This document shows positions 29,200-61,858 of a stretch of DNA of 64,000 bases, piece after piece. The DNA is from an uncultured Candidatus Saccharibacteria bacterium (GTDB lineage Bacteria; Patescibacteriota; Dojkabacteria; SC72): assembly GCA_964480345.1 (NCBI GenBank), contig CAYZNW010000003.1:45493-109492 (forward strand), given 5' to 3'. Position numbers and translations under genes: made by a program. Each line of letters starts with the position of its first letter. The stretch's first letter is position 1. The notes beneath the pieces are model-generated. The model was not told where the DNA came from, did not search any database, and saw only the letters and a list, made by a program, of their open reading frames with translations.

Positions 29200-29208
29200 A
29201 TTTCTTTC

Positions 29209-29685: not shown

Positions 29686-29703
29686 AATAAAAATAATTAA
29701 AAA

Positions 29704-34365: not shown

Positions 34366-34388
34366 ATTTTTGGTATAACTAAATAGAT

Positions 34389-36002: not shown

Positions 36003-36005
36003 TAA

Positions 36006-38697: not shown

Positions 38698-41600
38698 CCC
38701 ACCAGAACGGTTGTTTTACTCCACTATTAAACCATTTACCGTGTCTCATAATCTGGTTCATTGTAGGTCCATCTACTGTATAGTCTAACTGTACTTGATT
38801 AATTATTGGAGATACATCTGTATCTGTGCTTGTTAATGTTGCTTTGTACTGGAAGAATCTGTAGCTACTTCCTAGAGTTATTAGTTCTGGAGATACGGTT
38901 GGTAGATACTCTTCACTTGTTATGTTATCTATCCATATATTTCTTCCTCCGTATGTATTGTCTACTCTCATTGTTAGAAGGTTGGCTCTATCTAAATGGG
39001 TGTCTAATGTTCTTCCTTTGATTGGTAAATACTCTTTCTGCCATTTAAATACATTTGCTTTGGTAGTAAAGCCACCTGTTGGGAATGTAGATATACTCTC
39101 CCAATTTCTAACTGTGATAGCTCCTGTGTCTTTGTTTACACTTGTTACTACTCCCTGTGCTATGTACTCTCCACTACTGTTTTGTTCTCTTACTATGATC
39201 TTCTCTCCTGTATATATGTTACTTCCTTTGCTCTTCATTCCTTTTACTGTTCCATCTATTGTAAAGGAGGTATCAGAGGATGATGTTATGAGGTTAGAGC
39301 TATCTAATCCTGCTCCAAACTCTATTTCAATGTTATGTGTTCTTAATCCTACTTCATATGCTTGTCTTATTTCATCTGCACTTCTTGCTATGTTGGAGAT
39401 TCTAACTTCGTCTATTTCTCCATTAAACATTTCGACATAATTAGTAAATCCAATATATGGTAAATTAGAATACCCACTCAATCTTAAATTATATGTTGTG
39501 ACAGGAGAACCGTATGCTGTTGAGTTTGATGCTTTGAGTTCACCATTTAGATATATCTTTAAACCAGAAGAGTCTCCTGTAGCTACTACATGATACCATT
39601 TGTTGAGTTCTACAAGGTTAATTGGAGTTAATAACACATTAGTTCCTCCTCTATCCAGAAATTCTAAAGCACCTGTTGTATTTAATCTGATACGGTACCC
39701 AGAGTTATCACCTTTGTTTATAAAATTAGCAACATCATTAAACTCCTTTGGTTTTATCCACGCCTCTAGGGTGATAGCAGATGGATTTAATGAGGTTGAA
39801 TCAGGTATGACAATATAATCTGAGGTACCATTGAAGTTCCTAGCTCCTCCTATTCGACCGTTATTGGTATATGTAGTTCCTATTGACATTCCGTTGTTAT
39901 TGTATCCTGAACTATCTTTGATATATGCTCCATTCCCATCTATTTCATCTAAGTGCCATAGACCTACTGTATTTGCATCTGGTTGATAGTTTGCATATGC
40001 ACTCTCTCCTACTGTTGTAGATATGTTCTCTCCTACTTTATCACTAGCTATATATACAGGGAGAGAAATTTTTGATGATAGATTCTGTGTTGGTAATAGA
40101 TAATTTGAATATATTGATTTAGGTGAAGAGTTACGATCTACACCTTGAGTGTATTCAGCTAATATTTCGGATGCTGATAAAGCTCTATTGTATATTTTAA
40201 CTTCATCTATTAATCCATTGAATCCTGCTTCTCCAGGTATTTGCTTACTAATATTTAACTCTGTATTAGTTAAATTAACAGTGACCGCATATGTACTAAC
40301 TGCACTTGTAGAGACCTGAGCTCCATTTTTGTAGCAATATATATTAGTACCATCGTAGGAAAAAGTGACATGATTCCATTGAGAAATATCAAGATAAATA
40401 AAACATTGGGCTCCATTCCATATACCCGCAGATATATTACCATCGACATTGTACACTAAATGAATATTACTTGGTTCATACCCTCCAAGGCCAAGAATCC
40501 ATTGTCTCATGGTTGGTGAAGCGTATGGCTTAAGCCATAAATCTACTGTATGTACTTTATCTCCTGTTCCTAATCCACTATTTGGAACTGTTATATAATC
40601 ATTAGTTCCATTAAAACTTCTGCTTTTTCCTACTCGCCCATCTACTATTGTTGTTCCGGTAGCAGTACCTACCCTATCTCCTACCTTATCTGCAACTGTA
40701 GTGCCTGATAGCTCATCCATATCCCAATAGGAGATTAATCCTGTATTCTTTTTTTCAAAGATTGTTTTTAGAGAAGAGTATTCTTCAAAAATCTCTTGAG
40801 TGGAAAGTGTACGATTATATATTTTTGGTTCGTCTAATTGTCCGTTGAAAAACCCCGCTGATGCTATATTTGATCCTAGATAGGTATCTTTATCAGGTCC
40901 TAATGTAAATGTAGATGCAAATTCATTTTCAAGTACACCATCTATATATAATCGAGTCTTAGTTCCATCATTTGTTCCTGTTATTAAATGCCAATTACCA
41001 TCATTTATAGAGGATTTGCTTTCATGGGTAGCTGAGTTGTTACCAGATGTGTTATCAAAATCTATTAACACTTTACCAGTTGAAGAAAATGCGTTTATAT
41101 ATAGGAATAGTCCTCTTGATTGGAATAACATTGAATTTGATGTTGTAGTAGTTTTTACCCAAATACTAGCACTCATAGAAGTGAAAGAAGAAAAATCTAT
41201 TAATGGGACTTGTACATAATCGCTAGTCCCATTGAAGCTTCTACTATTATTTGCCTTACCTTGTGCTATTGTAGTTCCTGTAGCAGTTCCGTTATATGTA
41301 CCTACACTATCTTTAACTACACTTCCACTATTCTCATCCATCTTCCAATATGATACTAATCCATCATTTACAGTAGTCCCTATTCTATTTGATTTATATG
41401 GAAGTTCTTGATTATATAACCTCTCTATTTCATCAGATGTTTTAGCTGCGTTGTATATACGTACATCATCAACAATACCATTAAAACCTTTCCACCTATT
41501 AATGATAATATCGCCACTTGCTTGTCTTATTCCCATGTTACTATATGGTATGCTACTAACTTCTTTCCCATTAACATATAATCTAATAACACTATTTGGA

Positions 41601-44600
41601 CTATCTATTACTCCTACAACATGATACCAAGAATCCTCAGCTATTATCCCCACAGGGCTATTAAGTACAGTACTAGCTACTCCTATGTTATCTACCGATG
41701 TTGATATAAAGCTAATATATTTACCAACTGTATTTATTACTAACATGTATTGTCTATCGGAGCAATTTGTCTCACTACAATCAGCTGCTCCTGTATTTTT
41801 ATTTATCAAATCCATCCAAGTACCACTAAGCGTAGAGGTTTTGAACCATGTTGCTACTGAGAGTTGACTACCACTACCATTAATATCTAAATCTGGAGTA
41901 TTTGGTAATGTTATGTAATCAGTACTTCCATTAAAACTCCTAGCTTTATCATACTTACCATCTACTATTGTTGTTCCTGTTGCACTACCATTACTACTCC
42001 CTACGCTGTCTTTTACTTCGCTACCACTTAATTCATCCATCTTCCAATGAGATACTAAACTATCATCTAATGTACTAGTATTATCTGCAGTCATATTACT
42101 ACTACTTTGTGTAAGAGTAGATCTTTTCTCTATACCTTCTAAATAGTCTGATTGAATTCTATCTGCTGCAAGAGCTTTATTGTATAATTTTACTTCGTCG
42201 ATTATACCTGACAGGGTTCCATTAGGATATGTGTTATCACCCGCTATGAACAAATCTCCACTTCCCTGCCTAATTCCACTACTGCTATATGCTGTAGAAG
42301 CCATTAGTGCTCCATTAAGATAGATACGCATATATCCGTTAGTGCTATCAATTGTACCAACAATATGATACCAAGTGTTTGGATTTATATATCCCCATCC
42401 AACATCTGTTTGTCCTACTCCTATGTTATCTACTGCCGTTGAAGAGAAAACTAAAGTACCACTCTGATTAAGAAACATAGCATATTGCCTATTCACTCCA
42501 CTGTCTGGATTTGTATCAGCCTTATAAAGTAGTGTATGCCAATTCCTTTGTGACATATCAGAAATATTCATCCAGAAACTAACAGTAATTTTACTACCAG
42601 CTCCATTAATATCTAAAGAGCTACTGTTTGGTATTCTTACAACACCAGTATTTCCATTGAAGCTTCTAGCTTTTGCATATTTTCCATCTACTATCCCTGT
42701 TCCAGTAGCTGTACCGTTATTACCTGTTCCTGATATATCACTGACAGTTGTTCCACTCTCTTCATTCATACTCCAATACCCAACTAATCCATCTTCTTTA
42801 TTATTGTATAAGCTACTATTATCAAAAGATCTTAATGTACTCTTTGCTGTATTTTCTTTCCACTCACTCCATGTACCATCATTAGGGTTGTTACTATTTC
42901 CACCTCTAATATGAAATCTAGTATTTCCCGAGTTATAGTTTGAAAGAACTTCTGAGGAAGTAAGAGATCTACTGTAGATTCGAACAGAATCCATCAATCC
43001 TTTATAGTTATTCCCTCCTGCATTTGTAAGCCTTCCCATCTCTAAATTTGTACTGTTAGAAACACTATTTATAGGTCCTGCATTTATCACATCTGCTAGT
43101 CGACCATCAAGATATAATGATAATATTGTAGAGGATTTTGTGGCTACCACATGATGCCATTGATCGTCTACAACAATAAAGTTTGAAGAGCCAATATTTT
43201 TTGTTCCTCCGCTATCGTGAACTTCAAACAATATCTTTCCTTTAGGTTCACCATTAATAGAGATAACACTTAAATTGTAACCAATTCTAGTTGGAGAAAA
43301 AACTTGTTTACTAATTAATGTCGGAAAGGATTCTGCAATAGCATAATCTGCTTTGAACCATACTTCCAAACTAAAGTCTCCTGTACTAAAATCACCTACT
43401 GTACTGTTAGATGCTGTTACATAATCATCAACTCCATCAAACATTAATCCTCCACCTCCCCATCTCCTGTTGTTGTATGTCCAACCACTACCTATAACCT
43501 TATCTTGTCCTGTCGTATCAGAAAAATTAGTTAGAGTTCCATTACAACCACTACCACAACTACCTCCACTACTTGCTACTGTTCCACTACTCTCATTGAA
43601 ATTCCACTGAGCTACTAAGCCAGTAGTGCTATACGGTACCTCCCCATCTCCTGTATTTATACCTGATACAGTAGAAGATACATTTACTTTTGATACACTT
43701 GATCCTGAATCAAATACTGTAGATTCATACTCTCCTGAATATCTCTCTTTACCATACAAATATGTCTTATATATCTCATCTGCACTTCTAGCTATATTGG
43801 ATAAACGTACCTCATCTACTAACCCATTAAAGCCTACTTCGCTCCCTGGTCCTTTACCAATATTTAACTCTGTATTAGCTAAATTGACAGGAACTCCAAC
43901 AGTAGGAGCATTACTAGATACCTGTACTCCATTCTTATAGCAATACATATTAGTTCCGTTGTAGGTGAAAGCTATATGATTCCACTGAGAAATATCAAGG
44001 CGAATAGGACATTGTGAACCACTCCATATACCAGCATAAATATTCCCATCAGTACCATATATGAGATGTATATTACCTTGGTCATATCCTCCCATCACAA
44101 GAAGCCATTGTCTTATTGTTGGTAGAGTATATGGTTTAATCCATAAATCTATTGTATGTGTCTTATCTCCTGTTCCTAATCCACTATTTGGAACTGTTAT
44201 ATAATCATTCTCTCCATCAAATTCGTATCCTTTCCCTATCTTCCCATCTACACCAATTGGTGATATATCTAACAACTTAATTGATGTGAAAAAAGTAACT
44301 TCAGCTACAATAATATTATTAGTTGTAGGAGTGAAATTAACCCAAGTAGCATTGTTATTATATTGCCAACTACTTCCACTATATTTAACAGCAACAAAAT
44401 GATTACTGTTATTTGCTTCTAATCCAGTTATACCTTGAGCTGAAAGAGATGGAGAATACATGATATATCCACTACCTGCTTCAGCATCTGTAACAGCTAT
44501 TCCAGAGTTGATAGTAGGAGTGATTATCCTAATCCCATTCCGATCTATAAAATAGCAATTAGCATCACCATATGTACACTCAATATCTATCTCTCCAGCA

Positions 44601-46678
44601 TTATCAACTCCTCCATAACGATTTAATTTAAAAGTAAGATTAGAGCTTTGTATGCCATAGCTCATACCATTTAAAGAAGTTGCAATATGGTTATTATTAG
44701 TAGAACTGTCGGCTGCTGGTGTTAATGCTGGTATTCTGTATCTAACAATAACTATTCCCGATCCACCGTTTCCGCCTGCAAGGTATGCTCCTGTAAATGA
44801 ACCCCCACCCCCTCCTCCACCTGTATTCGCTATACCATTAGTACCTGCACCATTTAGAACTCCACTTCCTCCACCTCCATTTCCACCAGTACCAACATAA
44901 GAGCCATTAACTTCTCCACCACCTCCACCTCCTGCATATACAACTGCAGTTCCTGTAATATCGCTAACTCTTCCAGCACCACCATTACCTGATCCTGAAC
45001 TGTTTCCTCCGTCTGCTCCCACACCACCTGCACCTCCACCTCCTCCATTTGTTCCTACCCATCCTGAAACTATGTATCCAGCACCTCCGTTATATCCTTG
45101 GGAACCAATTCCTCCTGTTGATAAAGGAGCGGATACAACAACAGCACCACCACCACCACTACCTCCACTTCCACCTGCAAGTTGCCCATGAGTTATTCCG
45201 GCACCCCCTCCTTCAGCAATCAGAGATGAGAAGGCCGAATCTTGTCCTTTATTACCATTATATGCACCTCCGTCTGCTCCTCCATTACCTCCATTCCCTA
45301 CAGTGACTGCAATATTCCCTTTAGATACAGTAAAAGAAGATTGCTCTACAAAACCTCCTGCTCCTCCTCCAGAACCAGTATTTGCACCACCCCCTCCTCC
45401 TCCTATAACTAACACATCCACTTTCCCATCTGTATGTGCTGTAAAAGTTCCACTAGAAGTAAAAGTATGAATCACATAATCACCAACCCTTGTTACTGTT
45501 CCACCACTTGCTGAAAAATATGGAAGATCTCCAAAACTCCAATGCCCCACAGTATTAGAATCCACAACAGGCTTCTCCACACCTAATAACTCTACCCCAC
45601 TCACACTAGATACATAATCTGAACTTATATATGTACCACTATCAAAATCTACCTTACTGTTATGAACAATACTAGGATCTATTCTAATTGGAAAAACCCT
45701 ATCATTCGAATACAACCAATCGGAATCTAAAACTAACCTTATCTCATACCTACCTCCATCAATATGACTAATATTAAACTCCACATCATACGTCTTACTA
45801 TTAACTCCATCCACTGCAAAACTAGGAAGAAAATGACTAACATAATTACCATACCTATCCTCAAAATAGTAAACCTCCCTACTACCCTCACCTACATTAA
45901 ACCAACCCTTCTTTAACATTAACCCTTCTTCAACACTCAAATCAAAAACATACTCATTAGCAGGTAGAGAACAATCCTGTACATCCTCACAATCTTTAAT
46001 ATATGAATCTAAATTACGAATAATTATCTCCTCCTTAAGACCTATTCCCTCTATGATCTGATACTCTAAATCTATACCTTTTGATATTTCCTTATTTACT
46101 ACTGTCTTCTTAGTAATACTATCTTTCTCTTCTTCTCCAAACACTCTTCCCAAATCAACTAATTCTGTATTACTCTTAATATCTCTGTTACCCATTATCT
46201 CTGATACCTCTTTCAACTTCTCTTCATCTTTATCATTTAATTTCTCTAAATCGCTAACCTTAACCCCCTTTATTGACATCTCTATACCGTAGCTTTTAAT
46301 AGGTCTGAAGAAATTCTTAACCTTATCCCAAAACCCTCTTGTATTTTCTTCAAAAGGATTCCTCTTACTAATATCTGATTCAAACCTAACCCACTGAACA
46401 TCAGGTTGATCTCTTTTACCAAAATCTACTGAAAATTTAGGATTCTTGTTCCCATAAATAGTATGACTATTTGTACTTTGCAAAAATATATCAGAGTTAG
46501 GTTTTACACTACTAATATAGTAGATGAGGAATGACAGAAGAATAGCTATTCCAATAACAATACCAAATATAAATGATTTCTTACCTTTTAAGTTCTTCCA
46601 ATTAAATCTTCTTTTACTGTTGTTGAGATGTTTTAGGACAGATTTCATCATCATAAATATTAACATAGTAGAATACAT
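38690..46678 (-). CDS. giant (2662 aa) membrane-anchored surface protein with a Gly-rich segment and at least 8 LamG/Concanavalin-A-like lectin modules
   Basis: It has an N-terminal TM helix and a ~220-aa GGxGG-rich region. Units of 'W.MDE.SG...NG.ATG......GK...SFNG..DY' ending 'DEVRIYN.ALS..EI' recur throughout. Confidence 0.8.
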   Translation of the reverse strand: MYSTMLIFMMMKSVLKHLNNSKRRFNWKNLKGKKSFIFGIVIGIAILLSFLIYYISSVKPNSDIFLQSTNSHTIYGNKNPKFSVDFGKRDQPDVQWVRFESDISKRNPFEENTRGFWDKVKNFFRPIKSYGIEMSIKGVKVSDLEKLNDKDEEKLKEVSEIMGNRDIKSNTELVDLGRVFGEEEKDSITKKTVVNKEISKGIDLEYQIIEGIGLKEEIIIRNLDSYIKDCEDVQDCSLPANEYVFDLSVEEGLMLKKGWFNVGEGSREVYYFEDRYGNYVSHFLPSFAVDGVNSKTYDVEFNISHIDGGRYEIRLVLDSDWLYSNDRVFPIRIDPSIVHNSKVDFDSGTYISSDYVSSVSGVELLGVEKPVVDSNTVGHWSFGDLPYFSASGGTVTRVGDYVIHTFTSSGTFTAHTDGKVDVLVIGGGGGGANTGSGGGAGGFVEQSSFTVSKGNIAVTVGNGGNGGADGGAYNGNKGQDSAFSSLIAEGGGAGITHGQLAGGSGGSGGGGAVVVSAPLSTGGIGSQGYNGGAGYIVSGWVGTNGGGGGAGGVGADGGNSSGSGNGGAGRVSDITGTAVVYAGGGGGGEVNGSYVGTGGNGGGGSGVLNGAGTNGIANTGGGGGGGSFTGAYLAGGNGGSGIVIVRYRIPALTPAADSSTNNNHIATSLNGMSYGIQSSNLTFKLNRYGGVDNAGEIDIECTYGDANCYFIDRNGIRIITPTINSGIAVTDAEAGSGYIMYSPSLSAQGITGLEANNSNHFVAVKYSGSSWQYNNNATWVNFTPTTNNIIVAEVTFFTSIKLLDISPIGVDGKIGKGYEFDGENDYITVPNSGLGTGDKTHTIDLWIKPYTLPTIRQWLLVMGGYDQGNIHLIYGTDGNIYAGIWSGSQCPIRLDISQWNHIAFTYNGTNMYCYKNGVQVSSNAPTVGVPVNLANTELNIGKGPGSEVGFNGLVDEVRLSNIARSADEIYKTYLYGKERYSGEYESTVFDSGSSVSKVNVSSTVSGINTGDGEVPYSTTGLVAQWNFNESSGTVASSGGSCGSGCNGTLTNFSDTTGQDKVIGSGWTYNNRRWGGGGLMFDGVDDYVTASNSTVGDFSTGDFSLEVWFKADYAIAESFPTLISKQVFSPTRIGYNLSVISINGEPKGKILFEVHDSGGTKNIGSSNFIVVDDQWHHVVATKSSTILSLYLDGRLADVINAGPINSVSNSTNLEMGRLTNAGGNNYKGLMDSVRIYSRSLTSSEVLSNYNSGNTRFHIRGGNSNNPNDGTWSEWKENTAKSTLRSFDNSSLYNNKEDGLVGYWSMNEESGTTVSDISGTGNNGTATGTGIVDGKYAKARSFNGNTGVVRIPNSSSLDINGAGSKITVSFWMNISDMSQRNWHTLLYKADTNPDSGVNRQYAMFLNQSGTLVFSSTAVDNIGVGQTDVGWGYINPNTWYHIVGTIDSTNGYMRIYLNGALMASTAYSSSGIRQGSGDLFIAGDNTYPNGTLSGIIDEVKLYNKALAADRIQSDYLEGIEKRSTLTQSSSNMTADNTSTLDDSLVSHWKMDELSGSEVKDSVGSSNGSATGTTIVDGKYDKARSFNGSTDYITLPNTPDLDINGSGSQLSVATWFKTSTLSGTWMDLINKNTGAADCSETNCSDRQYMLVINTVGKYISFISTSVDNIGVASTVLNSPVGIIAEDSWYHVVGVIDSPNSVIRLYVNGKEVSSIPYSNMGIRQASGDIIINRWKGFNGIVDDVRIYNAAKTSDEIERLYNQELPYKSNRIGTTVNDGLVSYWKMDENSGSVVKDSVGTYNGTATGTTIAQGKANNSRSFNGTSDYVQVPLIDFSSFTSMSASIWVKTTTTSNSMLFQSRGLFLYINAFSSTGKVLIDFDNTSGNNSATHESKSSINDGNWHLITGTNDGTKTRLYIDGVLENEFASTFTLGPDKDTYLGSNIASAGFFNGQLDEPKIYNRTLSTQEIFEEYSSLKTIFEKKNTGLISYWDMDELSGTTVADKVGDRVGTATGTTIVDGRVGKSRSFNGTNDYITVPNSGLGTGDKVHTVDLWLKPYASPTMRQWILGLGGYEPSNIHLVYNVDGNISAGIWNGAQCFIYLDISQWNHVTFSYDGTNIYCYKNGAQVSTSAVSTYAVTVNLTNTELNISKQIPGEAGFNGLIDEVKIYNRALSASEILAEYTQGVDRNSSPKSIYSNYLLPTQNLSSKISLPVYIASDKVGENISTTVGESAYANYQPDANTVGLWHLDEIDGNGAYIKDSSGYNNNGMSIGTTYTNNGRIGGARNFNGTSDYIVIPDSTSLNPSAITLEAWIKPKEFNDVANFINKGDNSGYRIRLNTTGALEFLDRGGTNVLLTPINLVELNKWYHVVATGDSSGLKIYLNGELKASNSTAYGSPVTTYNLRLSGYSNLPYIGFTNYVEMFNGEIDEVRISNIARSADEIRQAYEVGLRTHNIEIEFGAGLDSSNLITSSSDTSFTIDGTVKGMKSKGSNIYTGEKIIVREQNSSGEYIAQGVVTSVNKDTGAITVRNWESISTFPTGGFTTKANVFKWQKEYLPIKGRTLDTHLDRANLLTMRVDNTYGGRNIWIDNITSEEYLPTVSPELITLGSSYRFFQYKATLTSTDTDVSPIINQVQLDYTVDGPTMNQIMRHGKWFNSGVKQPFWWAK
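40250..40630. repeat. intragenic DNA repeat, copy 2 (paralogous to 43850-44230)
   Basis: About 70 nt is near-identical (40551-40618 vs 44151-44215) within ~380 nt of 75-95% similarity. It encodes duplicated LamG modules. Confidence 0.6.
43850..44230. repeat. intragenic DNA repeat, copy 1
   Basis: See copy 2. Confidence 0.6.
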
Positions 46679-49778: not shown

Positions 49779-50177
49779 ATGGATAATTCAAACAAAACAA
49801 TATTAATCATAGAAGATGAGCAAGATCTTTTAGATTCATATAAAGAGCTAATCAGTATGGGGGGATATTCGGTAGCTACCTCCATAGATGGATATCACGG
49901 TCTTGATTACTTAGCTACAAATATTGGTCATGTAGATCTGGTTCTTTTAGATCTGATGATGCCTGGTGTAGATGGTCTAGAAGTATTACGAGCCATTAAA
50001 GCTGATAAGGATAAGTATGGTGATATGCCAATCATCGTTTTAACAAATATGTCTAGTGAACTAGTCATAAAAGAAGCTTTTGATCTAGGGGCATCTTCAT
50101 ACTTGGTTAAATCAGACTTAGATTATGATGGTTTACTTAAGGAGCTTAATAAATATTTAGGAAGCAGTGATAAATAA
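49779..50177 (+). CDS. single-domain CheY-like response regulator receiver (PilH-like)
   Basis: 'ILIIEDE', 'LVLLDLMMPGVDG', 'YLVKS'. Confidence 0.8.
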   Translation: MDNSNKTILIIEDEQDLLDSYKELISMGGYSVATSIDGYHGLDYLATNIGHVDLVLLDLMMPGVDGLEVLRAIKADKDKYGDMPIIVLTNMSSELVIKEAFDLGASSYLVKSDLDYDGLLKELNKYLGSSDK

Positions 50178-51658
50178 TGAGTAAATATTACTTCTCAAAA
50201 GAATCAAAGATAAAGAGAATTCTACTTCGAATATTCATAGTCGTATTAGTAATTTCTTTAGGATATGGTGCATACTACTACTTTTCAAATATTGATAAGG
50301 ATATAACAACAAGATATTTAAATGGTACTAAATATGAATTCCTTAACAGATTTTATGAGAGTAATAATGGATACACCTATACATATACTGCCAAAGGGAT
50401 AGTTTACAATGCAAAAAAGAGTGATTCAGAGGTGACTTTTGATATTAATGCTTGGGATCCAAAAACAAAAGAGAGCTTGTACTACTCCAATATATCTCTC
50501 GGAAATGTAAAATCAGGTGCCCTATCAATAGAGGATGCTTTCTATGATTTCAAGCCAGTAAAGATACAGTTTGATTTCGTAAAGAAGAAATTGGTTAATG
50601 TAGAAGTTACTGATTTAGTTTTAGAACAGAAAGAGTATCAGTATGTAAATGACAGCATATTAAGGTTCCTTACAAAAGGATATTCAGCAAATATTAATGA
50701 GGAAGGCTCCACATATTCTGCAGATTTACCAGTAAATATATTTGATAGAAATGGGCAAATTTCTCTCTTGCCATTGTATGTTAACGGTGATGCTTTAACT
50801 GCTTTGTATGGCATAGCAGTATTAACAAAAGATACTGAAGTAGATACCACCTTTAATCCTGATACATACATTGAAGCGTCTGTCTCTCGAATTAGTAATA
50901 GTATGAAAGCAAACGGTATTCTGTCTACTATGATTCCTGATGGATGCTCTTTGCTTTTGAAAATAGAGCAAGAAGGAGTATACTCTGACTCTCAAATTAA
51001 TAAATTACGAAATATTTTTTGTTCTCAAGGAGAATTTACTTCCATATTTTCAAGAAAAGAAGAAAGTAAGTGGAAGGATTTACTCACTTTTGTAGGTTCA
51101 GAGAAATTAGATACTGCTTACAAACCAGATGTCGAATTCGTAGGACTTATGTCTCTGTCTGATGCCTACTCTATGGCGACTTTGTACGGTAAGACTCTTA
51201 CTGAGGCGGAGGTTACAAATGTAGAGAACAGAATAGTAAATTCAGTGATATCATCTGGACGAGATTTAACGACATACGCTGTTCCGTACAAAACCTTATG
51301 TTCGCTAGCCTACTCTTTAACCTCTGTACCTAACTACAGTAATATGGAGAAGTATAATTCGGTAGTTGTTGGATTAGAAGATACAGTAAGCTCATATTCT
51401 AATAACGAGGAGCTACTGAAACTGTTAGAGAAAGACACAAAATCTACTTTGATGTGTGCACAGGCTTTTGCAAATAGTGAAGATAAAAGAGTTAGAGATC
51501 TTTTTAGTTCTACTTTAATAAAGATGTTCTATTTAAATATGTATGATAAAGAGGGACATACTGGTCTTTGGTCAGTATTCCCTGAGTATATGATGATGAG
51601 TATTGAAGATAGTGTAAGGTATTTTAACTTGTTAAAGGTAGAGTATGCGAAAAAGTAG
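50177..51658 (+). CDS. N-terminally anchored extracytoplasmic hypothetical protein (493 aa)
   Basis: Single N-terminal TM; no recognised motifs. Confidence 0.45.
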   Translation: MSKYYFSKESKIKRILLRIFIVVLVISLGYGAYYYFSNIDKDITTRYLNGTKYEFLNRFYESNNGYTYTYTAKGIVYNAKKSDSEVTFDINAWDPKTKESLYYSNISLGNVKSGALSIEDAFYDFKPVKIQFDFVKKKLVNVEVTDLVLEQKEYQYVNDSILRFLTKGYSANINEEGSTYSADLPVNIFDRNGQISLLPLYVNGDALTALYGIAVLTKDTEVDTTFNPDTYIEASVSRISNSMKANGILSTMIPDGCSLLLKIEQEGVYSDSQINKLRNIFCSQGEFTSIFSRKEESKWKDLLTFVGSEKLDTAYKPDVEFVGLMSLSDAYSMATLYGKTLTEAEVTNVENRIVNSVISSGRDLTTYAVPYKTLCSLAYSLTSVPNYSNMEKYNSVVVGLEDTVSSYSNNEELLKLLEKDTKSTLMCAQAFANSEDKRVRDLFSSTLIKMFYLNMYDKEGHTGLWSVFPEYMMMSIEDSVRYFNLLKVEYAKK

Positions 51659-54077
51659 ATATATTTTAATAACAATAGCATCATCGTTAATACTACTCTC
51701 TCTCTCTTCAAGATTCGCTCAGTCTGCATGGGAACCTATTGGAACTAATGCAGATGGAAGCATACTGTATCAAAATGAAGAAGGAGGATGGTGTTCAGGT
51801 CCTGCAGGAGGTACAGAACCAGAGTGCCACCATGAAAGTGAACCACCATGCCAAACTCATGCTTGTACTCTTCCTGCCTGTCCTGATGATACTGTCCTAT
51901 ACAATACAGGATATTCTACACAATATACTGTTAGCTGTGATAAAGGTTGTGGAGAAGTAGAAAGAAAATCGTGCTATGAAAGACCCACAACATGTAATCC
52001 AGTATATGAGAATTGCGAAGATTCATACATATACAGTTTACAATCAGAAGTACAGTTTCAACCATTACAAACAACAAACAAAATGGGGTATACATCTACT
52101 ACATACTCAGGTTTAGAAATAAATAACCCTGTAGGAGTAGAAGCTAGATATTGGAGTACAGTTGATAACAGTAAACTTGAAGCTATATATTTCTGGATGG
52201 CGAAAGAAGGAAGTGGAGCTCCTGGGGTAACAGGAAGTAGTGTAGAAGAGATGATATGCACAGAATTTCAGATACGCCCCCAACCAAATGGAGAATGGGA
52301 ACATGTATGTACAAAAACTGCAAATATATCGCCAACAAAAACAGTAGGTATTGAGTGGTTGTATGACAATCAAGTATCAGCAGGAAATTCAATATCAAAT
52401 GGAAGTTGGGGGTTCATGGTTAGAAAAGTAAACGGTAATTGGTCAGATGTATATGTACCTCTTGTGACAAATAGCAGAACGTATTGGGCAAAGATAACAA
52501 ATGTGGGAACTACATTTACACTCCACTCTAAATCAGGTAGACCATTAGTAAATATCTCTGATTTAAAAATATCACAAACAGACAAAGTAATTTCAAATTT
52601 TAGAATAACCTTTCTAAATGAAAATTCAGGAGTATCTAACTATGAAAAAGTATCAGAGGGAGTATATAACGCATATACGATGGTAAACGATGAATTTGGA
52701 TTTACACCTTGGGATAACTACACAAGTCAGGAAATCAAAAACAAATTAGGGTACAAACCAAATCAGATTAGACTTAGTAATCAATGGAAAAAAGGACCAA
52801 GCTGGGGAGTAGATCTTACTAGACCTGCAATTAGCAGGTTACAATCGATAATCCCCTCCTCTACTAGATTAATGATAGATTGGGAAGGTCAAGATTTGGA
52901 AAGCTCTATCTCCTACTCTGTTGGTAATGTATTTAGATTAAAAGATGCATTAGTAAAAAACAGTCCTGTGATCTATCCTGCAGGAAGTGGTAGAACATTT
53001 ATACTAAATTTTCAATCAGAAAGTGATCTTGTAGGAAAGATAAATGGAAGTAATATCCTATGGCAGAAGGAAAACAGTAAATCAGGAGCAGAAGATATTG
53101 ATTTAGTAGATAACCGAGGAGGGTATATGGATTTCTATGTAACTGTATTTGATAAAGGTGGAAATCATCTTACACAAAATGTTCGTTTCAAATTAGGAGA
53201 GTGGATTCAGACAAAAGGAGGATTCTTCTACAGTAAAAGCGGAGCATATTTAGATACGCGTCGTATTACTCCAGGAATCTGGATAGAGAGAAATCTGTTT
53301 GATAAATATGGATTTAAAGAAAATCAGGTAGATTTAGGAACTGAGTTAATATCTGGAAATGTTTCCAGACAATCAGCTTTATCAGTTGTAAACTATCTAA
53401 ATCAAAATGGCGTATTTAGAGCTATCAATTATGCCGGTCATCGCAAATCAGATGTGTATTATGAATACTTAGAGAAAATGCAAAAATTAGATGAAAAGAA
53501 ATATGAGAAAATTACTGTTGGTAATCTATCAGGTAATTTAACTGACAGCTGTTTTGATAAAGAGAAATGTAAAAACTCCATAGTAGTGAATACTGTAAAC
53601 AGTGATTTAACAGTAAACTCAAACTTCACATGTGATACTAGAGCAGTTATGCTAGTTAATGGAAATATCTATATAAATCCAGATATTACTAATTTAGATA
53701 ACCGATCAGCTTGTGTATTTATTGCAAAAGAGAATATATATATCAGAGAGGGAGCACATAAATCTGGAGCAAATATAGGTTTTGATGTCGTAGAAGGATA
53801 CTTCTTAGCTAATGGGACAATTAAAATAGAGAAAGAAAACAAACCATCTTCTGATAGAACAGATGGCTTATTCATAGAGGGAGGAATACTCTCATTTGGA
53901 ACTGATCCTGCAGAAAATGCTAGTATTATGCTAAAAAGAGAATTACATTTGGCCGATAGACATCCATATCCAGTATTAAATATAATTCATCATCCAAAAT
54001 ATGGTAAACTAATGCAAGATTTGTTTGAAGGTGATAGATTAGTATTTAAGACAGAGGTTGGTTTTAAACAATTCTAG
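51645..54077 (+). CDS. secreted 810-aa protein with Cys-rich N-terminal module
   Basis: Signal peptide; ~14 Cys in the first ~120 mature residues. Confidence 0.5.
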   Translation: MRKSRYILITIASSLILLSLSSRFAQSAWEPIGTNADGSILYQNEEGGWCSGPAGGTEPECHHESEPPCQTHACTLPACPDDTVLYNTGYSTQYTVSCDKGCGEVERKSCYERPTTCNPVYENCEDSYIYSLQSEVQFQPLQTTNKMGYTSTTYSGLEINNPVGVEARYWSTVDNSKLEAIYFWMAKEGSGAPGVTGSSVEEMICTEFQIRPQPNGEWEHVCTKTANISPTKTVGIEWLYDNQVSAGNSISNGSWGFMVRKVNGNWSDVYVPLVTNSRTYWAKITNVGTTFTLHSKSGRPLVNISDLKISQTDKVISNFRITFLNENSGVSNYEKVSEGVYNAYTMVNDEFGFTPWDNYTSQEIKNKLGYKPNQIRLSNQWKKGPSWGVDLTRPAISRLQSIIPSSTRLMIDWEGQDLESSISYSVGNVFRLKDALVKNSPVIYPAGSGRTFILNFQSESDLVGKINGSNILWQKENSKSGAEDIDLVDNRGGYMDFYVTVFDKGGNHLTQNVRFKLGEWIQTKGGFFYSKSGAYLDTRRITPGIWIERNLFDKYGFKENQVDLGTELISGNVSRQSALSVVNYLNQNGVFRAINYAGHRKSDVYYEYLEKMQKLDEKKYEKITVGNLSGNLTDSCFDKEKCKNSIVVNTVNSDLTVNSNFTCDTRAVMLVNGNIYINPDITNLDNRSACVFIAKENIYIREGAHKSGANIGFDVVEGYFLANGTIKIEKENKPSSDRTDGLFIEGGILSFGTDPAENASIMLKRELHLADRHPYPVLNIIHHPKYGKLMQDLFEGDRLVFKTEVGFKQF

Positions 54078-54121: not shown

Positions 54122-55153
54122 ATGGCTAAGCTGCCCGATCATGTTGGAATAGATTTTGGAACTCACTCAGTAAAAGCTGTAGAGTTGGTAAACATCTCTT
54201 CGAATACACCAAAGTTATCAAATTTAGGATCCCAATTAACTCCCAAAGGAGTTATAAACAGCGAGAACAAAGCTGATCAAGAAAAACTAGCTGGAGTATT
54301 GAAAAAACTTTATGAATCCTCAGGATTAAAGAATAAAGCTGTAGTTATGGCACTACCAGAGTTCTCTGTGTTCACTAGATTCTTAGAATTCCCAGGAGTA
54401 AAACAGGAAGAGTTAAAAGATGTTGTATACTATGAAGCCAAGCAGTATATCCCTATGCCACTTACAGAAGTTCAGTTAAGCTATGTACCAATAGGATTTA
54501 ATGCTGAAAGAAATGCTCCTAAAGTATTGATAGTAGCAGCACCTAGAAAAATAATAGATATATATATTAATGTAGCTGTCTTTGCAGGACTGGATCTGGT
54601 AGCAATGGAAACTGAATCAGTGGCAATGGGAAGAGCTATGTTTAAATCTACAGGCAAAAAGAACTTAGTAATGCTTGATTTCGGAGCTAACAGTACAGAT
54701 ATGAGTATTTTAGCAGATGGTAATCTTGTATTCTCACAAAGTATAGCAATCGGTTCTGACTCATTAACCCAAGCGATTATTAATAAATTCAACTTCGAAT
54801 ACCAAAGAGCTGAAGAGTTTAAACGGAACTACGGAGTAGTTGAAAATGTCCTTGAAGGTAAAATCTATGCAGTACTCTCCCCCATATTAGAATCAATCAT
54901 GATAGAAGTAAGACGAGGAGTTGAATTCTACAAATCTAGAACTTTAGCCTCAGCTCCCTCAGAGTACATATTAAACGGAGATGGTGCTTTACTACCAGGA
55001 ATCAAAGAGTTCATAGCTAAAAGTTTAGGCGCTACTGTTTCCGTAGCTGTTCCATGGAACAATATATTAGTAGAAGATAAATTCAAAGATATCGTTGCAA
55101 AAGGAGGCCCATCCTACTCTGTTGCAATAGGACTTGCATTAAAAGATGAATAA
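54122..55153 (+). CDS. pilM: type IV pilus assembly protein PilM (actin-like ATPase fold)
   Basis: 'HVGIDFGTHSVKAVEL' N-terminal phosphate-1 motif. Confidence 0.75.
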   Translation: MAKLPDHVGIDFGTHSVKAVELVNISSNTPKLSNLGSQLTPKGVINSENKADQEKLAGVLKKLYESSGLKNKAVVMALPEFSVFTRFLEFPGVKQEELKDVVYYEAKQYIPMPLTEVQLSYVPIGFNAERNAPKVLIVAAPRKIIDIYINVAVFAGLDLVAMETESVAMGRAMFKSTGKKNLVMLDFGANSTDMSILADGNLVFSQSIAIGSDSLTQAIINKFNFEYQRAEEFKRNYGVVENVLEGKIYAVLSPILESIMIEVRRGVEFYKSRTLASAPSEYILNGDGALLPGIKEFIAKSLGATVSVAVPWNNILVEDKFKDIVAKGGPSYSVAIGLALKDE

Positions 55154-55820
55154 CCAACAAAATCAAACACAACCAAATAACCCTGTTCCTAAAACTCCAG
55201 AAGAAACACAGGCTAATTTGAAGAAGGAACAATTCATCGATACAAACATGTTAGATGGCTCCTCTGGTATTAACCTTGTACCATTGATGAGCAAAGAAGA
55301 AATTGTCAAAGAGGAGAAGAAACAGAAGTTAAATATGTCCTCTATCATTATTATCATTATCCTTATTGTCATAACCATCATTGTAGTAGGATTCAATGTA
55401 ATATCAAAAATGGAATTAAATTCTGCTAAATCAAAATTAACAGAATTAGAAAATGAAGCAAACACATACTCTGAGAAAATAAAAAGTAATGATGAAATTC
55501 TTGACAGAGTATTTCTGTACAAAGAGATTGAAAGTAAACAGTACTCTTCTAAATCAGTAGTTGAATATATTACAGATATAGCAAGGAAGAGTGGCAATGT
55601 AAGCTTAATATCATTTGATTTCGTAGGAAAAGAGTCAATTGCATTTGAGGGAAATTCTGAAAACTTAGAAACAGCAGCAAAGTTTTGGTATCTTCTAAAC
55701 AGTGATACTAATTTTGAGAATATGAGCATGGAAACTATTTCCAAAACCCCTTCTGAAATTAGATTCTCTTTTGAAGGGAAAATATTAGTAGATAGATTTT
55801 TAAACTCTGAGAAGATATAA
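55146..55820 (+). CDS. PilN-like bitopic pilus assembly protein
   Basis: Cytoplasmic N-terminus, single TM, then coiled coil; overlaps the pilM stop. Confidence 0.55.
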   Translation: MNNQQNQTQPNNPVPKTPEETQANLKKEQFIDTNMLDGSSGINLVPLMSKEEIVKEEKKQKLNMSSIIIIIILIVITIIVVGFNVISKMELNSAKSKLTELENEANTYSEKIKSNDEILDRVFLYKEIESKQYSSKSVVEYITDIARKSGNVSLISFDFVGKESIAFEGNSENLETAAKFWYLLNSDTNFENMSMETISKTPSEIRFSFEGKILVDRFLNSEKI

Positions 55821-55823
55821 GAC

Positions 55824-56546
55824 ATGGCAGAATCAGTACCAATACAAACACAACAAGCAACAACAAAGGAAACATTAAAACAAGCTAATAACGCTAAAAT
55901 TAAACCTAAGTTAAAACTGACTGATTTAATAATACCGATAACTTTAGGTTTAGTTTCTATAATAATTAGTGTTTTTGTATTTGTACCTATGGTTGAGTCA
56001 GCATTTACATCAAGGACAGAATTAAAAGATGTAAAATCTAAACAGACTCAGATAACTAATCTTAACAGAGCAGTAAGTTCCATAGATGATGGAACTATGC
56101 AGATTGATCTATTGAATGCGAAAAAAGTTATTCCTAAATCTTTAACAGTCTCTAGCTTTATATACTATGTAGATGAATTAGCTAAACAGCTGAATTTAAC
56201 ATCAAAAACCTTATCTGCAGGAGATATTCAAATTACTACTGGAGGTCGAGATGAGAAGAAAAACTACTCTGGAGTTAGTGGTCCATTAGCATACTCTGGT
56301 ACAAGAGAAGATGTACTTAACTTCTTAGATAGCCTTTATGCTGCTTCCCCATATATTATCTCGGCAGACAATATATCATTAGAGCAGTCTTCCATGACAG
56401 CTGAGTGGAAAGTTGCACTTAACATAACAGGATATTATGTTTTAGAAAAAGATTACAGAGTAAATCTATACCTTCCGTTTAGTGTCTATACAAACAAACC
56501 AGAAGTAATTAAAACCTTTACTGAAAAAGCTGAAAAGTTGAAATAG
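55824..56546 (+). CDS. PilO-like bitopic pilus assembly protein
   Basis: Single TM 'LIIPITLGLVSIIISVFVFVPMV' followed by a coiled coil; position after pilM/N. Confidence 0.5.
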   Translation: MAESVPIQTQQATTKETLKQANNAKIKPKLKLTDLIIPITLGLVSIIISVFVFVPMVESAFTSRTELKDVKSKQTQITNLNRAVSSIDDGTMQIDLLNAKKVIPKSLTVSSFIYYVDELAKQLNLTSKTLSAGDIQITTGGRDEKKNYSGVSGPLAYSGTREDVLNFLDSLYAASPYIISADNISLEQSSMTAEWKVALNITGYYVLEKDYRVNLYLPFSVYTNKPEVIKTFTEKAEKLK

Positions 56547-58635: not shown

Positions 58636-61356
58636 TTATGTTATCCAACTCTCTTTTATTACAATATTCTCTCCAGACTTAATCTCCTGCTCTATTATTC
58701 CTTTTGCAATCTGGCCTTCTATCTTATCCTGTATATATCTTCTCATAGGTCTTGCTCCAAATCCTGGTTCATTTGATTTATTAGCTATGAGCATAGGTAT
58801 CTGTTCTGACCATGTTACAGTAATACCTTTCTCCAAAAGCCTTTTCGCTAAATCAGTGAGTAACAAGTTAGCAATCTGAGCAAGATTATTTAACTCATGT
58901 GGAGCAAATACAATTATCTTATCAAACCTATTTAAAAGCTCAGGTTTAACAGATTGTCTAAGTTCCAGTAAAGCTCTGTCTTTAGCCTCATCCCAAAGAA
59001 CATTCTTTTGATCAAGAGAATCAAGAAGAATCTTACTTCCAATATTACTGGTACAAATAATAATTGCATTTGTGAAATCTACAGTTTCTCCATGAGCGCT
59101 TGTCAAAATTCCATCATCAAAAATCTGTAAGAATAGATCTAGAATCTTAGGATTCGCTTTCTCTATCTCATCAAACAAAACTACAGAGTGAGGATTACTC
59201 TTTATCCTATCAATCAACGATATAGATGCTTGTCCCAAAATACTACTTCCGTCAGAACTACCCAAGAATTTATCAATACTAGATATATCCTGATACTCTG
59301 ACATATCTACTCTAATCATATTATCCTTCGCTGCAAAGAACTCTTCAGCTACAACCTTTGCAACATGAGTCTTACCCACCCCAGTTGGTCCCATAAATAG
59401 AAAGGTGCCAATTGGTTTATTCGGATTTCGTATATCAGTTCTTGCTCTTCTTAAAGCCTCAGCTATTGCTGTAACTGCATCATCTTGGCCTACAACTTTA
59501 CTCCTAATATTCTCCTCTAACTTCATTAACCTATTACTCTCCTCCTGATCTATAGCTGTAATATTTATATTCTTCTGTATAGAGACAGCCTTTGAAACAT
59601 GCTCTGCTGTAATCTTCTCAATACCATTACTCTGAGCCCAAGCACAAGTAGCCTCTATAGTTTGAACTGCACTACTAGGCAACTTCCTATCCTTAATATA
59701 TCTTTGAGAAACATCTACTGCCGCAGCCAAAGCAGGAAAAGTTAAAAAGCAATTAAAATTCTTTTCCAAAACAGGCACCTTACTCTCCAAAATCTTCATA
59801 GCATCATTGGCAGATATCTCCTTAATCTCTATATTTGTAAAACTTTGCCGCAAAGACTCATTACTGTAGAAATATTTTTTGTAATCAGCATAATTGATAC
59901 TACCGATAATTGGGAACTTGCTGTTTAAAACATATGGAAGCAAAATACCTGCTAGATTGTATCCTGTATTCCCTTCCTTACTAGGTACTAACTGTTGAAT
60001 CTCATCAATATACAAAATCGTATTACCTGCCTTCTCCAATTCGTTCATAGTTTTAATAACTAACTCTTCAATATTTGAATACTTCTGAGATGTAGCAACT
60101 AAATTATTCAAATCAAGCTGAATAATCCTCTTGTCTTTTAATTGAGCAGGAACATCAGCATAGTTAATCCTCTGAGCCAAACCAAGGATAATACTCGATT
60201 TACCTACCCCTGGCTCACCTATTAACAAAGCATTCTTGTTAGACAGTTTACCTAATACAGAGACTATTGCATCTACCTCCTCATCATGACCTATTCCAAA
60301 AATATCAGGAGATTCTGCCACCTCCTTATTTATCTCTTTACTAAAATGACTAAGTATGAAAGTATAGCCATAAATCCATTGATTCCCTATACCACCTTTC
60401 CTAAAATACGGAATATTTGGGTTCAGATACTGCCCTCTTTTTCTTTTCCTCATCAAATCATATTCATATATACATACCTCTCTTAAAATATCTAAATTAA
60501 TATTACTTCTCTTTAGATACTTAGAAAGATCTGGCACTATTTTTGTAATCGCCAAGAATAAATGTTCTAAACCTAACTGAGGAGCTTCACTCAACACCCC
60601 CTCTTCTGCTATATATACAAACAAATCTCGCAACGAAGAAATAGAGATACTCTCCAAATCTCCAAACAGAATATTCTCATTCTGTATAACTGTAGAATCC
60701 AATACAACTCCAGCTCTTCTTAAAATCTGCTTAACCTCGTAGTTCTCATCAATTAATTCTTTGTAAATATTAAACAGATTAATTCTCCCATTCTTATGAT
60801 GAATACAAAGCTCTTCAAGTAACTCTTCATTTGCAAAAGAGATAATATTAAGATGGGCATACCTACCAAACTTAAACCCTACCCCCTTAATCTCATCTAT
60901 ATCCTTTTGTGGAATCCTTTTCACTTTTGGCATCTGCACAGGATGACTCTTGTCCTCATAGAAATCATGCCAAAGAATAATAATTGCAAAAATCGAGATA
61001 CCAAAAAGCACATTAATGAATTTAGAAGAAAGAATACTCAAAATAGTTGGATAATCTTCAAGCAAAGTAGCATATTTCAAAATAAGTCCAAACGCAATTA
61101 AAACACCAAACACAACGAAAATATCTGCTACCAGTCTCTTTATCCTATTAAAATCTCTATACCTTAGAAAATTTGCAAGTACAGACTCTATCTGCGGAGA
61201 TGACACAGAGAAAAAATGATCTCTTGTTACTAGAAAAAGAGATTCATCCTCACTATCTAACAGTGGATATTTATTCTCTATCAAAGCAAAACTGTTTTTA
61301 GTACGGTTATGCTTTCCTATTATGCTTTTTTTGATACTTCCAAATTCTATAGCCAT
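58636..61356 (-). CDS. membrane-anchored ClpA/ClpC-like double-AAA+ ATPase (two N-terminal TM helices, Clp_N-like region, D1 and D2, no M-domain)
   Basis: Walker A 'GEPGVGKSS' and 'GPTGVGKTH'; Walker B 'LYIDEIQQL' and 'VVLFDEIEKA'; sensor-2 'GARPMRRYIQ'; 'GLEHLFLAI' Clp_N-like. Confidence 0.75.
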   Translation of the reverse strand: MAIEFGSIKKSIIGKHNRTKNSFALIENKYPLLDSEDESLFLVTRDHFFSVSSPQIESVLANFLRYRDFNRIKRLVADIFVVFGVLIAFGLILKYATLLEDYPTILSILSSKFINVLFGISIFAIIILWHDFYEDKSHPVQMPKVKRIPQKDIDEIKGVGFKFGRYAHLNIISFANEELLEELCIHHKNGRINLFNIYKELIDENYEVKQILRRAGVVLDSTVIQNENILFGDLESISISSLRDLFVYIAEEGVLSEAPQLGLEHLFLAITKIVPDLSKYLKRSNINLDILREVCIYEYDLMRKRKRGQYLNPNIPYFRKGGIGNQWIYGYTFILSHFSKEINKEVAESPDIFGIGHDEEVDAIVSVLGKLSNKNALLIGEPGVGKSSIILGLAQRINYADVPAQLKDKRIIQLDLNNLVATSQKYSNIEELVIKTMNELEKAGNTILYIDEIQQLVPSKEGNTGYNLAGILLPYVLNSKFPIIGSINYADYKKYFYSNESLRQSFTNIEIKEISANDAMKILESKVPVLEKNFNCFLTFPALAAAVDVSQRYIKDRKLPSSAVQTIEATCAWAQSNGIEKITAEHVSKAVSIQKNINITAIDQEESNRLMKLEENIRSKVVGQDDAVTAIAEALRRARTDIRNPNKPIGTFLFMGPTGVGKTHVAKVVAEEFFAAKDNMIRVDMSEYQDISSIDKFLGSSDGSSILGQASISLIDRIKSNPHSVVLFDEIEKANPKILDLFLQIFDDGILTSAHGETVDFTNAIIICTSNIGSKILLDSLDQKNVLWDEAKDRALLELRQSVKPELLNRFDKIIVFAPHELNNLAQIANLLLTDLAKRLLEKGITVTWSEQIPMLIANKSNEPGFGARPMRRYIQDKIEGQIAKGIIEQEIKSGENIVIKESWIT

Positions 61357-61357
61357 A

Positions 61358-61858
61358 CTATCTAAAGATTGATATTAAAATGAAAACAATAGTGCCTATT
61401 GGGAGAACAAACCATCCTAAGATTAATAGTATTTGAAATGTGATAACAATGAGATATATGGAGATGGCGATTGGTAAATAAAGCAGTTTTATTAATATTC
61501 CAAAGAAAAAGCCAATTACGGAATAATCTCTATGCCATGGGATAAAAAAGTGTCTTAAGAGTATTGAGATAGACAGAAAATCATCTATGACAACAGAAAG
61601 CCTAGCTAGCCTTCTTAAATGCCATAACGGCATCTGAACATACCACCATTTAAGAAAATCTTGAACTGAGTATATCCAGACAGTTGTATATGTATCTATC
61701 TTGTTTTGATTTAGTAATTGTTGGCCGGAGCCATCCAATACAGTGTTTTTGGATTCCATGTTAAGGCAGTATTTAAGTACGTTTAAGTATACATAAAAGT
61801 CTTCTTGGGGTAAAGCTAGGGCGGAAAATTCATAAATATTTAAGAGGCTATGAGTCAT
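61358..61858 (-). CDS. small polytopic membrane protein
   Basis: Its stop lies 1 nt from the Clp-like start, so the two are likely co-transcribed. Confidence 0.45.
   Translation of the reverse strand: MTHSLLNIYEFSALALPQEDFYVYLNVLKYCLNMESKNTVLDGSGQQLLNQNKIDTYTTVWIYSVQDFLKWWYVQMPLWHLRRLARLSVVIDDFLSISILLRHFFIPWHRDYSVIGFFFGILIKLLYLPIAISIYLIVITFQILLILGWFVLPIGTIVFILISIFR

Follow-up and report, generated by a model that had tools for sequence, protein, structure and literature searches.

The stretch of DNA analysed here (the window: 64,000 nucleotides (nt) of contig CAYZNW010000003.1 in assembly GCA_964480345.1, positions 45,493 to 109,492, with a G+C content of ~33%) comes from an uncultured bacterium labelled Candidatus Saccharibacteria and placed by GTDB in the Dojkabacteria. 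It carries two adjacent genes, here termed A and B, of which A codes for a large ATPase and B, immediately upstream on the same strand, for a small membrane protein (Table 1). Judged by its sequence, A is a two-ring Hsp100/Clp-family ATPase that lies outside every named subfamily, with a predicted hairpin of transmembrane (TM) helices ahead of its rings. B is, as far as family and fold searches reach, a small orphan membrane protein.

Architecture of A and state of its rings

Pfam recovers in A two stretches of AAA (E = 1.8e-19), AAA_lid_9 (1.7e-11), AAA_2 (4.9e-46) and ClpB_D2-small (8.3e-19), that is, tandem AAA+ modules (D1 and D2) of which the second is of the AAA_2 type and is followed by the D2-small domain. 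This is the arrangement of the class-I two-ring Clp/Hsp100 proteins, and the Clp_N domain of that class, a double Clp repeat, is present as well. A phmmer search of the PDB places A nearest to Thermus ClpB (1qvr, 3.6e-111) and Bacillus ClpC (1.7e-108), and E. coli ClpA gives a single unbroken alignment in which residues 354-897 of A pair with residues 188-730 of ClpA. D2 is ~41% identical to that of Thermus ClpB, and D1 scores highest against ClpC. The curated subfamily models are all far from accepting the protein: it reaches 462.5 bits against a cutoff of 1232.1 for the NCBIfam ClpB model (TIGR03346), 416.9 against 993.15 for ClpA (TIGR02639), 363 against 884.95 for TssH/ClpV, and ~360 against ~1900 for both ClpK and ClpG. 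Assignment to ClpV/TssH also finds no echo in gene context, since no type VI secretion genes occur in the annotated contexts of relatives. The Torsin model (PF06309) yields 23.3 bits, under its 27-bit cutoff, and Peptidase_M41 is not among the best 25 of the 42 Pfam matches of A, which is thus placed neither with the Torsins nor with FtsH. The sequence after D1 is wholly taken up by the AAA_2 and D2-small domains.

A lacks both the M-domain and an obvious ClpP-docking loop, as a first-pass annotation of the window had remarked. ClpB and ClpC each align to A in two pieces that skip their own M-domains (residues 398-454 of ClpC have no counterpart), while ClpA aligns continuously, and the ~65 amino acids (aa) between LPSS (560) and VVGQD (621) give A a ClpA-like spacing. 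The M-domain is therefore taken to be absent, and no coupling to DnaK is accordingly expected. Opposite the KYVGFN of ClpC, A has a 6-residue gap; the same segment runs ungapped against ClpB, and no IGF, IGL or VGF docking tripeptide is found in that segment after the D2 sensor-1. Databases name the homologues of A as ClpA or ClpC, or as the ATP-dependent Clp protease ATP-binding subunit; because the docking loop is missing, these protease-subunit names are misleading for the family.

A defence-system reading was also tried and set aside: PADLOC returned for A only generic AAA-domain matches (DolB, 3.1e-35; PDC-M37B), strongest on D2, and none for B. The locus does not qualify as a PADLOC defence system and occupies a conserved core-genome position.

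The region ahead of the rings combines a small β domain, two predicted TM helices and the Clp_N domain. Its AlphaFold2 model, built from a 17-sequence alignment (mean predicted local distance difference test score (pLDDT) 81.7, predicted template modelling score 0.75), has four β strands (residues 12-17, 22-25, 38-43 and 47-50; pLDDT ~85-94), long helices at 53-95 and 112-137, and a helical domain at 150-307. The β domain, which is predicted to be cytoplasmic, matched no known family; G14, H16, F41, T44, R45, F49 and Q55 are conserved in and next to it. Hydropathy (Kyte-Doolittle, 19-aa window) peaks at 2.80 (residues 75-93) and 2.04 (108-126), and lysines and arginines number five ahead of TM1, one in the connecting loop and four past TM2, a bias that fits the N-in/C-in hairpin that a cytoplasmic ATPase needs. 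The two predicted TM helices and the Clp_N-like region after them, both proposed in the first pass, are borne out. For the latter, a family profile of the N-terminal region finds in the PDB, below E ~1, only Clp N-domains (best 1.6e-4, residues 242-295), and Foldseek places the domain nearest to the N-domains of ClpC and ClpC1; the Pfam Clp_N model itself is reached by 5 of 17 relatives, with A of the window falling below it.

Conservation in the membrane segments was followed in a motif survey of 131 family members, to which segments of Thermus ClpB and Bacillus ClpC were added. TM1 has the family consensus A-N-I-L-x-I-P-G-L-x-I-A, in which N78 is kept by 113 of the 131 members, P83 by 122 and G84 by 129; the copy in the window deviates at two of these positions (D78, F83). 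In the region of TM2, F118, G119 and S121 are conserved, and the cytoplasmic end is marked by a near-invariant L128-W129-H130-D131. This is conservation far past the needs of a passive anchor, and therefore it suggests that the helices engage in specific intramembrane packing.

The same survey separates the two rings. In D1, the Walker A motif is G(V/T)GKSS in nearly all members and the Walker B motif IDE in 123/131, but the paired arginine fingers of ClpA/B/C (LERRF or LARRF) are absent, their place being taken by LRQSF in 114/131. The arginine of this motif, R503, is invariant among close members; distant members have K, E, S or G there, and they too lack an arginine at either canonical finger position. 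In D2 of A, the full catalytic set is present (Walker A GPTGVGKT, Walker B FDE, sensor-1 N771, arginine finger R810, sensor-2 GARP), and it is kept across the family: GVGKT in 126/131, FDE in 125/131, the finger motif NR[FY]D in 127/131 and GARP in 126/131, with a TSN sensor-1 whose N771 is invariant in a 53-sequence alignment.

The pore loops tell a different story from that of the catalytic motifs. The position of the D1 pore-loop tyrosine (KYR) is occupied by K, N, G or R. The D2 loop, GYVG in ClpB and ClpC, is an S/G/E-rich segment of 0-10 residues that has no tyrosine and varies by insertions and deletions; P0119 has a shortened version, and P0194, P0200 and P0205 have lost it altogether. 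Toward its end it reads (I/L/V or gap)(L/F/M)G, position 706 being gapped in 50/131 members and 707 being L, F or M. No conserved aromatic residue occurs in either pore loop across the 131 members. Both the pore-1 tyrosine and the D1 arginine finger of the class-I Hsp100 proteins are thus missing, and the description of the modules as two intact AAA+ rings stands for the Walker motifs of both and for the finger and sensors of D2, but not for the D1 fingers or for the tyrosines of either pore loop. Three distant members, P0200 (L005:5001-7565), P0192 (L006:5001-7820) and P0189, have gone further, with Walker B, arginine finger and sensor-2 all missing from D2 and D1 motifs missing too, yet they keep the N-terminal β, TM and Clp_N regions and an upstream B. 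They might be scaffolds of a pseudo-ATPase kind, or they might work alongside an active paralogue that has gone unseen.

At its very C-terminus (residues 900-906; 58639-58659) A ends in I-K-E-S-W-I-x, with E902 in 124/131 members and W904 in 126/131, an ending that the aligned ClpB and ClpC sequences do not share. Its role could be docking, or the segment could simply form the final strand of the D2-small domain.

Gene B and the distribution of the pair

Homologues of B are mostly 132-133 aa long, and in L001 an in-frame stop sits just 5' of the methionine equivalent to the MESKN start; for these reasons B most likely starts at M34 and has a true length of 133 aa rather than 166. The first-pass annotation had A preceded, at a distance of 1 nt, by a 166-aa polytopic membrane protein; the membrane protein and the gap are as described, but the length is probably too great by the 33 residues before M34. 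The protein begins with a hydrophilic, variable N-terminus, continues with a conserved amphipathic region (WWY..MP, R53, D60, S63, FF.PWHRD) and ends in a hydrophobic stretch of ~52 aa bearing the motifs G..K..YLPI and W..LP, which reads as two predicted TM helices. Among its invariant residues are W38, W39, R53, D60, S63, F71, P74, P96 and P120. An AlphaFold2 model (pLDDT 84.7), computed from an alignment without the locus-derived sequences, has helices at 24-62, 64-69 and 81-132. B found no family match in Pfam, NCBIfam or PADLOC and no informative match in a fold search, so that neither sequence nor fold assigns it to a described membrane-protein family.

The junction reads ...TTTAGATAG-T-ATGGCT, a single T separating the TAG of B from the ATG of A. 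In 16 of the 17 loci examined, A has a homologue of B directly 5' of it and in the same orientation, in a survey that spans close and distant homologues of A (identity in the N-terminal region down to 21-29%); the 17th locus has only 195 nt of sequence upstream of A. The spacers vary (-4, as ATGA, -1, +1, +2, +3, +4 and +10 nt) and cover all three frame offsets. That the arrangement is an artefact, whether a frameshift or sequencing error splitting one gene or a mis-called start giving A its hydrophobic N-terminus, is hardly credible: it could appeal solely to the 1-nt spacing in the window, and the separate B and A reading frames with varied spacers in all frame offsets exclude it, while A is of uniform length (901-907 aa at 99-100% query coverage) in at least 120 clusters among the matches listed. 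The frameshift raised as a possibility in the first pass is thereby refuted. Tight or overlapping junctions, together with the consistent pairing, are of the kind that fits translational coupling and are compatible with a stoichiometric complex of the two proteins.

When 1.84 billion cluster representatives are searched with the N-terminal 345 aa of A, no more than 32 relatives reach E <= 1e-3, and a profile of B retrieves just 170 proteins. Where the source names are informative, they are Dojkabacteria, WS6 or Patescibacteria; six genome records are labelled uncultured Candidatus Saccharibacteria, which we take as automated labels. The families of A and B thus appear to be confined to the Dojkabacteria, a class of the candidate phyla radiation (CPR/Patescibacteria), and their close relatives. 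The pair is also found on contigs of 0.7-0.76 Mb that are probably near-complete genomes. The 238 kb of related DNA examined contain no second Hsp100 gene. As to a resident ClpP, the answer is divided: tblastn with a ClpP of the lineage finds none in the window, but among related DNA clpP is present in L005 and L006, and only there, as a tig-clpP pair 3-4 kb upstream of B and A (L005:332-2132, L006:1-1090) and with no clpX next to it. Full-text literature searches found no membrane-integral bacterial Hsp100 and no Clp protein of the Dojkabacteria described, and nothing relevant on Clp or Hsp100 proteins of the Dojkabacteria or Patescibacteria or on membrane-anchored ClpB-like proteins.

Table 1. 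Coordinates of the B-A locus and of the parts of A, in window positions
Feature	Position	Strand	Remarks
Gene A, class-I Hsp100/Clp-family ATPase	58636..61356	minus	906 aa; stop codon counted
ORF (open reading frame) B as mechanically called	61358-61858	minus	166 aa from first ATG
Gene B, small membrane protein, probable extent	61358..61759	minus	133 aa; start M34 (MESKNT...)
B stop (TAG), 1-nt spacer, A start (ATG)	61354..61360	minus	Sequence reading and junction survey
A, small four-stranded β domain	61207..61329	minus	Residues ~10-50; AlphaFold2 and conservation
A, predicted TM helix 1	61072..61134	minus	Residues ~75-95; hydropathy, AlphaFold2, conservation
A, predicted TM helix 2	60973..61035	minus	Residues ~108-128; hydropathy, AlphaFold2, conservation
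A, divergent Clp_N (double Clp-repeat) domain	60436..60909	minus	Residues ~150-307
A, D1 AAA+ module and lid	59509..60297	minus	Residues ~354-616; Walker A GEPGVGKSS, Walker B D451-E452
A, D1 arginine-finger site	59842..59850	minus	Residues 503-505, R-Q-S vs E-R-R in ClpA/B/C
A, D2 AAA+ module (AAA_2) and ClpB_D2-small	58639..59508	minus	Residues 617-906
A, D2 pore-1 loop	59230..59262	minus	Residues 699-709, G-SSDGSSIL-G-Q vs G-APPGYVG-Y in ClpB/ClpC
L32 gene	58402-58560		Flank on the 3' side of A

Genomic neighbourhood and other features of the window

Beyond the L32 gene, the flank on the 3' side of A continues with NusB, RNase III, S16, a KH protein and PilO/N/M (translations read by eye, and synteny with annotated relatives), and on the other flank of the pair lie a divergently transcribed Dus gene and a methyltransferase-like ORF. 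The chromosomal position of the pair is conserved across relatives, as is the wider order rpmF-nusB-rnc-rpsP-KH with pilMNO, which represents general genome synteny. On that ground, Dus, RsmD, the L32-NusB-RNase III-S16-KH series and PilMNO were set aside as functional partners. Other neighbours in relatives occur only once each (Band_7 in L008, LemA in L003). A scan for promoters and terminators gave signals no higher than the shuffled expectation.

Several further features of the window deserve record. Type IV pilus genes lie at 32554-37217 and 54122-56546 (a PilB-like T2SSE, a second, PilT-like T2SSE, PilC (T2SSF) and PilM/N/O); in the distant relative L003, a prepilin peptidase, a pilin, PilC and PilB are found a few kb from the B-A pair, which is possibly mere synteny. 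Directly upstream of pilM, an 810-aa protein (51645-54077, plus strand) combines an N-terminal signal-like hydrophobic segment with a Cys-rich region, and the equivalent position in L001 and L019 is taken by large proteins with no Pfam match or with Laminin_G_3. A giant ORF of 2662 aa occupies 38690-46678 on the minus strand. Three large ORFs have no Pfam match at E <= 1e-5 (16521-20141, plus, 1206 aa; 13980-15752, minus, 590 aa; 50177-51658, plus, 493 aa). At 26461-31614 (minus) gyrB and gyrA are neighbours with a 158-aa ORF (29209-29685) between them, ordinary housekeeping genes. Finally, a TrwB/VirD4/HerA-like ATPase (3867-6344, plus) and a tyrosine recombinase (Phage_integrase; 11671-13005, plus) may point to a mobile element integrated within the first 13 kb.

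Proposed mechanism and comparison with known systems

Going by sequence comparison and predicted structure, we consider it about an even chance (a probability of roughly 0.5) that A works together with B as a membrane-tethered remodelling ATPase that is driven by D2 and independent of ClpP and DnaK, the two genes forming a lineage-specific module. A hexamer of A would be tethered at the cytoplasmic face of the membrane. Hsp100 proteins are hexamers that thread substrate from D1 to D2, and because the anchor of A is N-terminal, the side formed by Clp_N and D1 would be turned toward the bilayer. The TM hairpins would pack against B in a membrane-embedded collar. D2 would be the working hydrolytic motor, while D1, since it is without an arginine finger, would probably be a tier whose ATP binding serves chiefly in assembly or regulation. 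Such a complex would act without ClpP and without coupling to DnaK on clients that are embedded in the membrane or associated with it. Pore-loop tyrosines drive threading in ClpA, ClpB, ClpC and Hsp104; because they are missing from A, because the D2 loop is unstable in evolution, and because catalytically degenerate members persist, short-range ATP-driven remodelling or release of the Torsin or Msp1 kind would be likelier than processive threading of the ClpB/ClpC type.

Several observations weigh against this proposal. We infer hexamer formation, the interaction of B with A and the topology of A alike, and the neighbours offer little functional guidance, B alone being consistently linked to A in annotated relatives. 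A rough Hessa-type estimate with approximate scale values gives -1.0 kcal/mol for TM1 and +1.6 kcal/mol for TM2, which leaves TM2 borderline as a membrane helix on its own. R503 might serve as a stand-in arginine finger for D1. Most members retain in the D2 loop an aliphatic or hydrophobic pair followed by glycine, (I/L/V)(L/F/M)G708; non-aromatic pore loops are thought to grip polypeptide in some AAA+ rings, and by analogy this motif could still support processive threading. The degenerate members, in turn, suggest that the role of the protein can at times dispense with ATP hydrolysis.

Among the rival explanations, A could be a processive, hexameric threading unfoldase or extractor, comparable to FtsH without its protease or to Msp1, that draws membrane proteins from the bilayer along its axial channel in the D1-to-D2 direction, with B as adaptor or substrate receptor. 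An anchor at the N-terminus brings the D1 entry side up against the membrane, much as it does in FtsH and Msp1, a geometry that would suit extraction, and the complete D2 catalytic set, the retained hydrophobic-Gly pair and the presence of Clp_N, the usual site for substrates and adaptors, all speak for it. The idea is nevertheless weakened, and we regard it as unlikely though a substantial contender, given that the conserved tyrosine of KYR or GYVG is found in neither ring, that the D2 loop dwindles to nothing in some members, that D1 is without its finger and that some members are without the D2 catalytic motifs. For the same reasons, including the loss of D2 motifs in three members, the label of unfoldase or extraction machine given in the first-pass annotation finds no support in the form given; the membrane association itself, the small membrane-protein partner and the independence from ClpP and an M-domain are upheld, and they are conserved across the lineage. 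A bolder and doubtful reading would have a hexamer of A, together with B, make up a membrane-embedded Hsp100 machine of a kind not described before, in which the TM hairpins of A and the two TM helices of B build a collar or conduit of at least 24 helices over the D1 entry. It would carry out dislocation or remodelling free of a protease and of DnaK by a grip without tyrosines, on membrane proteins or envelope assemblies such as type IV pili, and would be a two-ring bacterial equivalent of the Torsin-cofactor or Msp1 principle. More speculatively still, the invariant R53 or R77 of B might complement the finger-less D1 in trans, by analogy with LAP1/LULL1 and Torsin.

The degenerate members bear on the notion that A is a nucleotide-regulated scaffold or switch, its rings being an ATP-dependent platform on which B and the TM collar, or some other complex, oligomerise. 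That P0189, P0192 and P0200 have kept the N-terminal module and the upstream B, and that the TM segments and N-terminal region of A are highly conserved, is what such a scaffold predicts; but every D2 catalytic motif examined is strictly kept by 125 or more of the 131 members, which implies selection for hydrolysis in most lineages and makes the scaffold improbable. A motor for export, perhaps towards the host cell of an episymbiont lineage and similar to HSP101 on EXP2 in the Plasmodium translocon of exported proteins (PTEX), is a far slimmer prospect: with D1 on the membrane side, D1-to-D2 threading would draw substrate off the membrane instead of into it. The pore loops are degenerate, and the annotated contexts show no consistent linkage of secretion genes to B and A. 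Slighter again is the chance that A is the ATPase partner of ClpP in a membrane-bound Clp protease. The tig-clpP pair near B and A in L005 and L006, without an adjoining clpX, and the database names of the family would suit it. However, the docking loop is missing, as seen in the gap opposite the KYVGFN of ClpC and in a ClpB-like segment length, and coupling to ClpP is disfavoured on that account; the ClpA equivalog is missed by a wide gap (417 vs 993 bits), and no ClpP was found in the window.

To our knowledge, the Hsp100/Clp ATPases have been described as soluble threading motors for which the conserved pore-loop tyrosines are essential. The family of A, by contrast, would consist of integral membrane proteins; it has an orphan membrane protein as its constant partner and is widespread in one class of the CPR. 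With ClpB/Hsp104 it shares the two AAA+ rings, Clp_N and ClpB_D2-small, its D2 being closest to theirs in sequence and the segment after sensor-1 ClpB-like in length; it departs from them in lacking the M-domain, the KYR and GYVG tyrosines and the D1 arginine pair, and in having an N-terminal β domain, a TM hairpin and an obligate small membrane partner. As in ClpA, D1 runs directly into D2 with no long M-domain between them, and ClpC gives the best score for D1 and the nearest N-domain by Foldseek, but the IGL/VGF loop of these proteins and the half-M-domain of ClpC are absent, the pore loops are degenerate, and A is membrane-anchored.

Other Hsp100 proteins work at membranes. HSP101 in PTEX is membrane-located but peripheral, and both it and Hsp93/ClpC at the chloroplast inner envelope keep canonical pore loops and M-domains. 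Chloroplast Hsp93 is likewise membrane-located and peripheral (PMC10500165). A differs from both in its degenerate pore loops and in a covalent anchor, the predicted TM hairpin. It is in FtsH and Msp1/ATAD1 that an N-terminal TM anchor sets the entry face of the ring at the cytoplasmic side of the membrane, and A resembles them in its N-terminal anchor and in the ring entry face predicted to look toward the membrane. They belong to another AAA+ clade, with a single classical ring, aromatic pore loops and, in FtsH, an M41 peptidase, none of which is seen in A.

The nearest mechanistic precedent, by analogy, would be the Torsins, Clp/Hsp100-related and membrane-associated proteins without aromatic pore loops or an arginine finger that need membrane cofactors (PMC5425593). 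The Torsins belong to the eukaryotic endoplasmic reticulum and nuclear envelope and have LAP1/LULL1 as cofactors. A shares with Torsin an N-terminal hydrophobic segment, non-aromatic pore loops and a membrane-protein partner, a likeness that concerns the likely working mode rather than descent. The differences are equally plain: Torsin has a single ring without an arginine finger of its own and resides in the lumen of the endoplasmic reticulum, whereas A has two rings and carries a finger in D2 (R810), and B falls well short of the size of a degenerate AAA+ cofactor. If A is active, it would show either that bacteria have a second route to the pore-loop-less, cofactor-dependent mode known to date from the eukaryotic Torsins, or that aliphatic loops suffice for extraction; it would also be a component of membrane proteostasis peculiar to ultra-small bacteria that depend on a host.

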